Shown piece by piece: positions 32,178 through 34,554 of a stretch of DNA of 64,000 nt; position 1 is the first letter of the stretch, and every line of letters begins with the position of its first letter. Position numbers and translations under genes: made by a program. Source of the stretch: Methanobacteriota archaeon (lineage in GTDB: Archaea; Halobacteriota; Bog-38; Methanoflorentales; Methanoflorentaceae); the NCBI GenBank assembly GCA_963719035.1, contig CAVRAO010000002.1, positions 160,001-224,000 of the forward strand, in the 5' to 3' direction. The notes below the pieces were generated by a model. That model did not search any database, had not been told where the DNA came from, and was given only the letters and a program-made list of their open reading frames with translations.

Positions 32178-33667
32178 CGTCTCTTGCCTTCAGTCGGTTT
32201 ATTGCGCTGATCATTGCTTCAACTGATGCAATAACAATGTCACCCCTGGCTGCCCGAGCTGTTACGAAGTTACCTTTCGAGTCTTCAACACCTATGACGA
32301 CGTCAGCAAGTGCGTCACTCCCTCCACTAATAGAGTCGATCCGAAACGTTCGTAATTGCACGTCTGCCCCCCCAAGGATATCATGTACTGCGTTGATAGC
32401 AGCATCGACAGGACCAATGCCGACTCGGGCCCCGATTTTGGTTTTCCCATCAACAATTGCTTTCACCGTAGCGGTTGGCGTAACGCGATTGCCAGTCATA
32501 ACCGATAGCTCTTCAAGTAAGATTGTGGGTTTCAACACCTCATTTGTCACGGCTTCTGCGATAGCATACAGGTCTACGTCCGTAACTCGTCGACCTTTGT
32601 CGCCAATTTCCTTAACGCGGCCCATTATACGAATTAGCTCTTCTTCGCTAACGTCAAAGCGTGCATCTTTAAGCATCTGGCGCACCGCGTGTTTACCAGC
32701 GTGCTTACCTGCTACGAGTCTACGGCGTTGACCTACCATTTCTGGCGTCATGATTCCAGGTTCAAACGTATCCGCACGTTCTATTACCCCGCGCGAATGA
32801 ATTCCGGATTCGTGCGAAAATGCGTTTTCCCCAACAATTGGCGCTGTAGGGGGTAGATTTATTCTCGTGAATCGTTCGACCAGTCGCGAGGTCTCGAGAA
32901 GGTACTGTGAGTTGATGTTCAACTTTAGTCCAAAAATACTTGACAAGCTCATTGCCGTTTGAGCGAGGTCAGCGTTCCCCGCCCTCTCACCAATGCCATT
33001 AATCGTTACTTGGACTTGGTTGGCACCTGCTTCGACTGCTGACAAGCTATTCGCCACTGCCAATCCGAAATCATTATGGCAGTGCACGTCGATGGGGACT
33101 TTCACGACTTCCCTAATTTCCTTAACAAAGTTAAACATTCGCAAGGGGGCCATAATTCCTACCGTGTCAGGTATATTGATGACATCAGCTCCTGCAGATT
33201 CTACCCCTCGACAGATGTGTCGGAGAAAGTCCATTTCAGTCCTGGTAGCATCCATTGCAGAAAAGAGGCACTTCGGTACCGTGATCTTGTACGTATTCGA
33301 CTGCGTCAATTGACAGATCGTACACTTCCTGTCTCGTCTTTTTCATTGAATATTCGAGCTGCACGTCTGACGTTGAGGCGAAAACGTGAATAAGTCCAAC
33401 ACCGGCACCTAAGCACGCATCAATATCCGGTTTTACGACGCGTGCAAGACCGCACACAGTTGCTTGTAGACCCTCGTCTACGATGCTCTTCACCGCGTTG
33501 TATTCCCCTTTTGAGGAAATAGGAAACCCCGCTTCTATAACGTCGACGCCTAGCTTGTCTAGGGCTTTAGCGATGGTAAGTTTCTGGTCATCAGTGAGCG
33601 AAACGTTCGGTGTTTGCTCTCCGTCACGTAGTGTTGTGTCAAAAAAAGTGATTATTTCTTTATTCAT
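32170..33667 (-). CDS. leuA: 2-isopropylmalate/citramalate synthase family, frameshifted near 33277
   Basis: DTTLRDGEQ in the 5' ORF; FSAMDATR, HCHNDFG, GIGERAGN, HESGIH and the regulatory domain in the 3' ORF; removing one base gives about 498 aa. leuA versus cimA not resolved. Confidence 0.85.
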
Positions 33668-33710
33668 TCTCGAATTGACGAAGAAGACTATCCCTCAAAT
33701 ATATACGCAT
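33660..33710 (-). promoter_or_regulatory. Leu-Leu uORF MRIYLRDSLLRQFENE overlapping the leuA start
   Basis: ATG 33710 to TAA 33660; BRE/TATA AAAGCG-TTTTATAG at 33750-33737. Confidence 0.55.
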
Positions 33711-33831
33711 GTTTACAACAATTATTGAAGAGCTACCTATAAAACGCTTTCTTTAGGAGGCACGCGCATTTCAGCATTTTCAGCTTGCTTATCTAAAGTT
33801 TGAAATAAACGTTACTTTGATGCCAGTTTTC

Positions 33832-34554
33832 TTAGGCAAAACGTTTTTGGATCCAACTGATTAAACGTACGTTTTCTACGAAAATCACGTCGATAGTTAC
33901 AGCGAGAACCCCCACCAAAAAAATCGCATCAAAAACACCGGCACCGCCAATCGATGCAAAAGCAAAGCCACTTGGATAATAAGATAGGATATTACCAATA
34001 CGAACGACGTCAGCACCGAGCAGTACACCTAATGAACCCGAGACATAGGCAATTGGACCGACGCTTGCCCACTGCTTTTTTGAAAGCGCAATACCAACAA
34101 TGCTGGCTGCAATTGCAATAGCGTAGATGTTCTGGATAATGACCCCTTCTCCAGCCACATACCCCGAACTGAGGTAAGAGAAGATGGCAATGACAGAAAC
34201 TCCAATGAGGCTTGCTTTAATAGGGCTTCTGTGATCGATCATCATCTTGAGCGAAATTAAGAAAGGTATAAGGAAACCTGCCAAATCGAAACCAATGGCA
34301 AGTCCATTTCTTGGTCCAACGGTTAGGAAATCGCGGAACAGCAGGAACCCTAGCGGCACATCGATAATGCCAAAACCAAGTGAACCTCGAAAATATAGCA
34401 ATATCGAAGGAAATGAAGTAAGAAAAAGAACTGTTGAACCGATAAAGATCAAGAGTGCTTCTGACAGTTTGAAGCCCACCGTCTCGAATCCGAACACAAG
34501 TAGCAAGAGTATGAGAGAAGCGAGCAACAAAAAGGTGACTGATTCAATAAGCAT
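33832..34554 (-). CDS. DUF1614 membrane protein
   Basis: AYVSGSLGVLLGAD, SIGGAGVFDAIF. Confidence 0.88.
   Translation of the reverse strand: MLIESVTFLLLASLILLLLVFGFETVGFKLSEALLIFIGSTVLFLTSFPSILLYFRGSLGFGIIDVPLGFLLFRDFLTVGPRNGLAIGFDLAGFLIPFLISLKMMIDHRSPIKASLIGVSVIAIFSYLSSGYVAGEGVIIQNIYAIAIAASIVGIALSKKQWASVGPIAYVSGSLGVLLGADVVRIGNILSYYPSGFAFASIGGAGVFDAIFLVGVLAVTIDVIFVENVRLISWIQKRFA

Follow-up and report, generated by a model that had tools for sequence, protein, structure and literature searches.

In the bacterial prfB gene, an autoregulatory +1 frameshift combines a CUU-type leucine codon in the ribosomal P site, a G-rich, rRNA-complementary element upstream of it and a slow A site to give end-product feedback, while attenuation of the bacterial leu, ilv and phe systems makes use of leader peptides (leuL, ilvL), in which cognate codons register how far the tRNA belonging to the pathway is charged. 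The element described here lies at the 5' end of a leuA gene, encoding a 2-isopropylmalate synthase, on the minus strand of a 64-kb stretch of a contig from a Methanobacteriota archaeon, and this whole stretch is called the window in what follows. Judged by comparison with related loci, it is probably a cassette for programmed +1 ribosomal frameshifting, of ancient origin and spread widely through the phylum (Halobacteriota).

Outside bacteria, the yeast Ty1 and ABP140 sites (CUU_AGG_C) let an NUU codon in the P site slip onto UUN while a slow sense codon stands in the A site, as set out in the consulted portion of a 2016 review by Atkins and colleagues (PMC5009743), which states of useful hungry-codon frameshifting that 'no examples are known' and, in that portion, does not mention leuA or cimA. 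The antizyme +1 frameshift serves a metabolic feedback loop both as its sensor and as its effector, according to the sections consulted of a 2021 review of archaeal recoding (PMC8211752). Beside viral cases, those sections give as the sole reported archaeal example a -1 frameshift at A-AAA-AAT in fucA1 of Saccharolobus solfataricus, with no known sensor, and they contain no cellular +1 event. In the literature searched, no paper connects leuA or cimA with frameshifting, and an earlier description, in subscription journals or in supplements beyond that search, is possible; leuA, short peptides and frameshift were not found in the main text and supplements (some supplements only in part) of the ribosome profiling (Ribo-seq) papers on Methanosarcina mazei and Haloferax volcanii. 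In this context, the best reading of the leuA element is that it resembles the prfB and Ty1 sites, with a cognate 'hungry' codon placed in the A site.

A sequence-only reading of the window had proposed a leucine-sensing upstream open reading frame (uORF) coupled to a +1 switch, and its coordinates and described arrangement were all correct when the minus strand was re-read. The comparative test that it proposed was carried out on 89 LeuA loci from as many genomes, which represent 19 species from the family to which the window belongs and, for the remainder of the phylum, a single genome from each genus, with named records added, and the outcome supports the interpretation. The cassette was detected by its upstream motif and an NTT codon only, ignoring the codon that follows. 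In frame 0, that of the short open reading frame (ORF), its core consists of a G-rich element (mostly (A/G)GG GAT or GGG AAT), a spacer of one codon (in most cases CGT, CGC, TGT or TGC), the NTT codon (CTT, TTT or GTT) and a leucine codon. It was found at 59 of the 89 loci, in 19 of the 25 families of the phylum, with LeuA always in the +1 phase, whereas the same detection in the other two phases gave 2/89 and 4/89 loci, so that the arrangement exceeds chance. Families f4 (0/12), f10 (0/8), f13 (0/2), f7, f17 and f25 lack it. Every one of the 59 cassette loci has an upstream ATG from which frame 0 runs into the cassette without meeting a stop, a +1 frame open from the NTT codon to the catalytic DTTLRDGEQ motif and a frame-0 stop 1–10 codons past the NTT codon, the spacing from NTT to the codon for the D of that motif being 37, 40, 43, 46, 49, 52 or 55 nucleotides (nt). 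Far beyond the genus of the window, relatives have short frame-0 peptides such as MNLRDNLLRQFDNE, MYSRDRLLCQFENE, MTSRDCLLN, MNKSKQRDRFLQH, MTQSSAGGRLLLHQFD and MKPTNAEAPGNAEAYCLLHR.

Database matches extend this picture. An exact 20-mer of the cassette occurs in 43 stretches, nearly all from Methanosarcina or Methanosarcinaceae records, and an exact 18-mer of the haloarchaeal pattern in at least 39 haloarchaeal loci among the 80 matches listed; these haloarchaeal loci come from Halorubrum, Natrinema, Haloarcula, Haloferax, Haloplanus, Natronomonas, Halorhabdus and others. Among these matches listed, the NTT-to-D distance is 55 nt in 38 of 39 loci and 58 nt in one, and a frame-0 ATG ORF ending in R-V-L-[PR]-G is present in 38 of 39, the remaining locus ending at a contig end. 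The out-of-frame ATG and the +1 phase, whose conservation the sequence-only reading had proposed to test, recur together with an NTT-Leu pair in 19 of 25 families and in at least 39 haloarchaeal loci. Of the CTTCTTC heptamer, named in the same test, what is conserved is an NTT followed by any leucine codon and preceded by a GGGAT-like element, and not the heptamer itself; the supposed need for tandem leucine codons had to be dropped, the pair being often Phe-Leu or Val-Leu.

Within the window's own genome, the detection motif has 291 matches, and the full arrangement is found at three only, namely leuA, a cimA-type paralogue and one probable chance match before a ribosomal protein gene; two other members of the enzyme family have ordinary ATG starts and no cassette. 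It is hardly credible, therefore, that the short ORF is a chance uORF in the 5' untranslated region (UTR) of an ordinary gene starting at ATG 33667, since conservation, phase and cognate codons all run contrary to this and the full arrangement is confined to the sites just named. What fits such an explanation is the place of the in-frame ATG, which precedes the catalytic motif by 9 codons, a distance normal for this family (genes of f4 and f10 start 7–11 codons before D). At the ribosomal protein gene (N-terminus ..SSGQPRKQRKARF; G000:C8 ~213898, minus strand), AGGGATC lies 3 nt before the probable TTG/GTG start, which suggests that a string of this type can double as a ribosome-binding site.

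The codon that follows NTT was left out of the detection, and it is leucine in 59 of 59 LeuA-type cassettes (CTT 30, TTA 19, CTA 7, CTC 2, TTG 1). The cimA-type paralogue offers a natural comparison: in the window's own genome it encodes 494 amino acids, lies directly upstream of ilvB, and, of 38 database records with a name for it, about 30 give citramalate synthase ((R)- or D-). Its cassette (L003, G000:C6:16091-19657, ~1090–1125) reads GTG AGG GAT CGC TTT ATT TAA in frame 0, so that TTT ATT TAA gives Phe-Ile-stop, and the enzyme frame is again +1, with no canonical in-frame start. A CimA-type sample of 48 loci, made up of the window's own genome and 47 more, had the pattern in the +1 phase at 39 loci and at none in the other phases, one of the matches (L344) being spurious. 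In 37 of the 38 true matches the codon after NTT is isoleucine (ATT 35, ATC 2), and the four cassettes missed by the pattern (L321, L323, L344, L347) have isoleucine as well. The leader ORFs therefore carry codons for the end product of the respective pathway, leucine for the LeuA type and isoleucine for the CimA type, and the isoleucine, which nobody had foreseen from the window, is a strong point in favour of amino-acid sensing as judged from these comparisons. Since changes that are silent in frame 0 (CTC, ATC) turn the +1-frame residue from F into S, it is the frame-0 meaning, the pathway amino acid, that is conserved.

A further line of evidence comes from start codons. Between the last in-frame stop and DTTLRDGEQ, no in-frame ATG, GTG or TTG exists at 19 of the 59 cassette loci, compared with 0 of 30 loci without a cassette, most of which have an ATG 7–11 codons before D. 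The same lack affects 24 of the 39 CimA-type pattern matches and, among the haloarchaeal matches listed, 25 of 39 loci in the sequence examined, and three others have a TTG 13 codons before D. Two overlapping frames with no independent entry into the second are thus found at many loci of the phylum, and not in the window itself, which has ATG 33667. Annotation reflects this situation: 120 haloarchaeal database orthologues show 92 N-terminal versions, with 2–78 residues before DTTLRDGEQ, many of their annotated starts being CTG, ATT, ATC or ATA at the DNA level, and EFF[QK]G is present in the main frame in 112 of the 120, which bears out the statement in the sequence-only reading that such genes have uncertain starts with an FF before the catalytic motif. 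Of 120 CimA-type database proteins, moreover, 25 have an annotated start that lies past the catalytic motif. The haloarchaeal LeuA-type proteins (P0121–P0240) have about 400–430 amino acids and no PF08502 LeuA_dimer domain in precomputed Pfam data, and because of this the enzyme may be without allosteric feedback there and rely on the cassette.

The place of the frame change can be narrowed down. A +1-frame stop stands three codons before NTT in 14 loci (recurrent TGAGGGAT) and a frame-0 stop directly after the leucine codon in 4, so that the change of frame would have to fall within about 14 nt, from GGG to the leucine codon. Inside this interval, +1 re-pairing in the P site is possible only at NTT followed by C or T (CUU to UUC, UUU to UUU), and NTT is followed by C or T in 59 of 59 LeuA cassettes. 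A slip at AGG-G was considered as a general site and rejected, as other lineages have GCG-G, GGT-G, GCA-G or AGT-G there; transcriptional slippage was discarded as a general cause too, since T runs (TTTTTTA) are present in some lineages, and not in CTTCTTC or GTTCTTC. The G-rich element could assist the slip, given that the 16S rRNA 3' end of the window's own genome (GGATCACCTCCT), assumed for all genomes, is predicted to form a duplex with the 14 nt before NTT with a mean of -8.9 kcal/mol over the 59 cassettes (-8.1 kcal/mol for the window), compared with -4.0 +/- 2.45 for controls from the same genes, and the value is in the top 5% at 35 of 59 loci. For the CimA type the control mean was set aside, since it is distorted by short loci. 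The start of frame 0, too, looks genuine: LeuA-type frame-0 ATGs lie about 25 nt past TATA-like boxes, a hexamer starting 24–38 nt before the ATG in 44 of 59 by a loose test without shuffle control, and in several CimA-type families a GGTG/GGAG Shine-Dalgarno sequence is found 6–9 nt before it.

No conserved RNA structure accompanies the cassette. RNAalifold, applied to 24 diverse cassettes, predicted 0 pairs, and so neither the terminator nor the antiterminator of an attenuator; hairpins visible in single lineages did not generalise across this set. An Rfam scan of window positions 33000–34500 gave 4 matches with E >= 1.8, none near the gathering score, and a scan of 10 loci (5 haloarchaeal, 5 other) returned only rRNA, tRNA and one weak miRNA match. 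As for the leuA-Halobacteria RNA motif, named in the sequence-only reading, there was no Rfam match (E <= 1 in the 10 loci, E <= 10 in the window) and no paper with the term, the presence of such a family in the library being unconfirmed. These results make it very improbable that the conserved letters are a cis-regulatory RNA or a protein-binding motif working at the RNA or DNA level, of which the leuA-Halobacteria motif would be an example, with frame-0 translation irrelevant, an explanation which would suit the strong nucleotide conservation (the 20-mer and 18-mer above) and the complementarity of the G-rich element to 16S rRNA, and which leaves the missing start codons, the phase and the cognate codons unexplained.

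What is observed directly is the anatomy with its conservation and phase, the want of start codons across many lineages and the agreement between codon and pathway; from these we infer a slip, the nucleotide at which it takes place, the part played by the G-rich element and the response to amino acids. Transcription would start about 25 nt past the TATA box, so that the mRNA would begin at or next to ATG 33710, and ribosomes would translate frame 0 for 8 codons, until the CTT at 33686-33684 stands in the P site and the next codon, the leucine CTT at 33683-81, awaits filling. With charged tRNA-Leu plentiful, frame 0 would be read to its TAA, yielding no LeuA by this route; with Leu-tRNA scarce, the A site would stay empty and the P-site tRNA could re-pair one base forward (CUU to UUC), helped by the GAGGGAU element 3 nt upstream pairing with the 16S 3' tail, and the slipped ribosome would continue in the LeuA frame. 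The result would be end-product feedback without a terminator hairpin, and the cimA-type paralogue would employ the same device with an isoleucine codon and Ile-tRNA. In the window's genus, ATG 33667, which overlaps the stop of the short ORF, would provide a second route, probably for a basal level, while in many lineages the shift would be the sole way into the LeuA frame. The features of the locus to which this scheme refers are collected in Table 1, where the codons of the short ORF are ATG CGT ATA TAT TTG AGG GAT AGT CTT CTT CGT CAA TTC GAG AAT GAA TAA, and the +1 frame, closed by TGA 33697-33695, is open from GGG 33694 (GGG ATA GTC TTC TTC GTC AAT TCG AGA ATG).

Table 1. Features at the 5' end of leuA, as positions in the 64-kb window of the Methanobacteriota archaeon contig (BRE, B recognition element)
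Feature	Positions	Strand	Basis or remark
BRE/TATA-like promoter element, AAAGCG-TTTTATAG (full string AAAGCGTTTTATAG)	33750-33737	minus	sequence; same spacing kept in genus (GAAAGCGTTTTATAGGTAGCTC)
Frame-0 ATG, presumed leaderless start	33710-33708	minus	26 nt past TATA element
Frame-0 short ORF, peptide MRIYLRDSLLRQFENE, 16 codons plus TAA (33662-33660)	33710-33660	minus	sequence
TGAGGGAT: +1-frame stop TGA (33697-33695), then G-rich element complementary to 16S rRNA 3' tail	33697-33690	minus	sequence, predicted duplex
Spacer codon AGT (most relatives CGT/CGC/TGT/TGC)	33689-33687	minus	codon counts
CTT, proposed P-site slip codon (NTT class; would become TTC after +1 slip)	33686-33684	minus	comparison
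CTT (Leu), proposed A-site sensor codon	33683-33681	minus	Leu at this place in 59/59 LeuA-type cassettes
In-frame synthase ATG, overlapping end of short ORF (ATGAATAA); opens MNKEIITFFDTTLRDGEQ	33667-33665	minus	+1 frame relative to short ORF
LeuA-type 2-isopropylmalate synthase gene, two ORFs in window	33667-32170	minus	NCBIfam NF002085; orthologues

Several observations weigh against the frameshift cassette as just described, and those concerning the sensor and the slip site are given first. One CimA-type cassette, L340 (G127, family f24), has leucine (TTT CTT) in place of isoleucine; at this locus a LeuA-type gene adjoins in divergent orientation. Once the +1 frame encodes F-[FYW], leucine is specified anyway by 5 of the 6 codons that frame 0 can have, so that the identity of the leucine is partly forced, the LeuA result is weaker when taken alone, and it is the contrast between leucine and isoleucine which carries the argument. 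The assignment to LeuA or CimA is in turn putative, resting on database names and gene context, and a sequence search of the PDB did not separate the two. Moreover, CTT makes up 21.7% of the leucine codons in the window's own genome, where a tRNA-Leu(GAG) gene is present; CTT is not rare, and any scarcity must therefore be conditional. Re-pairing would be imperfect for GUU to UUC (haloarchaea), for UUU to UUA (CimA type) and for AUU AUU in CimA-type cassettes of Methanosarcinaceae. Also, Haloferax is reported, in the part consulted of PMC3986360, not to use the Shine-Dalgarno mechanism at 5' UTRs, which weakens a Shine-Dalgarno-like role of the G-rich element in haloarchaea. Finally, kinship among the genomes means that the counts overstate the number of separate events.

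A second group of difficulties comes from the window's own genus. An in-frame ATG is present at every one of its 15 loci, preceding D by 9 codons at 14 of them and by 8 at the fifteenth, and in 4 of the 15 the cassette is degenerate: one leucine codon is left in L007, the ATG is missing from L008 and L018, and the upstream part of L019 differs. Since ATG 33667 exists, the shift is optional in this genus, and it may be dispensable or decaying there; the suggestion, made from the window alone, that a +1 slip or altered re-initiation switches leuA on is thus borne out as to a conserved cassette, and not as to an obligatory shift in this genus. Furthermore, the overlap of the short-ORF stop with the in-frame ATG (ATGAATAA) is a layout suited to termination and re-initiation, which recurs in the Methanosarcina-like loci L127 and L131, and in several families the CimA-type main frame has a GTG 4 nt after the frame-0 ATG (ATGAGTG). 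Frame 0 could then be a regulatory leader ORF that senses leucine or isoleucine by stalling, with LeuA started separately, by re-initiation or at a nearby, possibly non-canonical codon, and the cognate codons would fit any stalling sensor of this kind. We regard this as unlikely, because the many LeuA, CimA-type and haloarchaeal loci counted above without a canonical in-frame start offer no canonical place for re-initiation, and because neither the strict +1 phase nor the always-open +1 frame (59/59) is needed for it. A ribosome stalled at 33686-81 would also be expected to cover ATG 33667, so that starvation would lower expression.

The third group concerns the stretch just upstream of NTT. 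Variation there falls on third positions of the +1 frame (GGN ATH GTN), and the share of synonymous changes at two codons is 0.35–0.44 in the +1 frame, compared with 0.04–0.05 in frame 0. Of 120 CimA-type database proteins, 65 open with MRGI or MCGI from a main-frame start, and in the haloarchaeal record P0214 an upstream ATG frame is joined in frame to VEFFQG. Among the MRGI/MCGI set are Methanothrix records that open with MRGIALF in the main frame, a natural in-frame version. As such lineages with fused frames keep G-I-A-L-F, the join might lie a few codons upstream of NTT, and the pattern of synonymous and non-synonymous change is ambiguous as a locator of the slip. The same facts, namely third-position variation with conservative I/V exchanges and in-frame variants retaining G-I-A-L-F, would suit a LeuA that begins at a non-canonical main-frame codon (ATC, ATT, ATA or CTG), GGG ATH GTN TTY TTY being an N-terminal G-I-V-F-F and the frame-0 ORF incidental, and annotation pipelines already call such starts. 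This we consider quite improbable, as it accounts neither for the frame-0 ATG that all 59 loci have at promoter or Shine-Dalgarno distance, nor for the 14 loci in which a +1-frame TGA immediately precedes GGG, nor for the leucine/isoleucine split between the paralogues, kept through changes that alter the +1-frame residue. In addition, Natrinema-type loci have GTC in the place of ATH, and the upstream haloarchaeal region has no +1 coding periodicity, with entropy sums by frame-0 codon position of 15.2/16.8/15.4 compared with 17.8/8.8/10.0 downstream.

With regard to the gene itself, it belongs to the archaeal 2-isopropylmalate synthase family, two ORF pieces scoring 183 and 496 bits against NF002085 and covering profile positions 12–142 and 140–501, with the catalytic DTTLRDGEQ and the C-terminal LeuA_dimer region both present. 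The pieces (33667-33236 and 33309-32170), a split absent from the sequence-only reading, correspond to unsplit orthologues of about 507 amino acids in the same genus. Because three DNA runs and one RNA run gave contigs that lack the extra base at 33275/33276 (minus strand ggtaCCgaag), the split near 33275 is an assembly indel, unrelated to the cassette, and the true protein reads through (..VQDHGTKCLFSAMDATRTE..). The paralogue in the window's own genome also appears as two overlapping ORFs (L003 1093-2112 and 1892-2584; 339 + 230 codons), probably through another assembly indel. The RNA contigs, from a related organism, cover the gene to about 33684, with nothing past 33714, and contigs cannot show where a transcript starts, so that they are no evidence on the start. 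Among the differences listed between the contigs of the DNA and RNA runs and the window, no variant falls within the cassette; just upstream of the frame-0 ATG there are two population variants, 33712 T>C (plus strand), shared by the three DNA runs, and 33716 C>A, seen in a single one. A 240-amino-acid ORF (33832-34554, minus strand), which adjoins the leuA promoter on its upstream side, has no NCBIfam match.

Beyond the phylum, the Odinarchaeia metagenome-assembled genome (MAG) at locus L052 has a cassette-like ..W R N I F L L stop and lacks an in-frame start, and the Bathyarchaeota MAG at L070 reads M G Y R F I E R Q R stop; ordinary starts are found at the other archaeal loci compared from outside the Halobacteriota. 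Taking the comparisons together, we lean, with some caution, towards the wider view that methanogens, haloarchaea and their kin make LeuA and CimA, the first enzymes of leucine and isoleucine synthesis respectively, only when a ribosome, held at one sensor codon for want of the corresponding charged tRNA, slips +1 from the leader frame into that of the enzyme, which would be a translational counterpart of bacterial attenuation, the first natural and useful hungry-codon frameshift and the first cellular +1 event in Archaea, and which may reach beyond the phylum in the two MAGs mentioned. If this is true, a single codon together with a slip site suffices for an amino-acid sensor in Archaea, which would be a novel means of amino-acid sensing in cells, and the unstable or truncated start annotations of hundreds of archaeal leuA and cimA genes would be accounted for. 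Such a cassette would also be a compact, swappable regulatory part, of which leucine and isoleucine versions already exist in nature. Moreover, its presence in the genetically tractable Methanosarcina and Haloferax makes it directly testable.

Compared with the described systems, the likeness to prfB would lie in the short reading of frame 0, the proposed forward re-pairing of a leucine CUU-type codon in the P site, a candidate rRNA-pairing G-rich element upstream, a slow filling of the A site that would decide between stopping and shifting, and end-product feedback. The leuA/cimA cassette differs in that its A site holds a sense codon, with a stop directly after it in only 4 LeuA loci, in that its proposed sensor is an aminoacyl-tRNA and not a release factor, in its archaeal host, and in a shift placed 4–24 codons from a mostly leaderless start. 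With Ty1, as far as the portion of the review consulted describes it, the cassette would share the NUU slip with a waiting sense codon, and the CimA-type UUU AUU would need the same move from NUU to UUA. The A-site tRNA of Ty1 is constitutively scarce, whereas the common CTT of the cassette, with its tRNA gene, would need starvation for any scarcity, and the purpose of the cassette would be to regulate a biosynthetic enzyme. Antizyme differs by its polyamine signal, the stop codon at its site, its eukaryotic host and a product that is a negative regulator, while fucA1 is, as leuA would be, an archaeal cellular gene read across two frames, the shift being -1 there, as opposed to the proposed +1 here. 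Bacterial attenuation has a comparable short upstream ORF with cognate codons, and leucine for leuA and isoleucine for cimA mirror leuL and ilvL; the cassette, in contrast, has no terminator or antiterminator hairpins (0 conserved pairs) and one or two cognate codons only, and its output would be a change of frame into the enzyme itself, often without a start codon of its own. Because it has no stop in the A site, no constitutively rare codon and no hairpins, the element is best filed neither with prfB or Ty1 nor with attenuators proper, and rather as a new variant of +1 frameshifting that would work like an attenuator.

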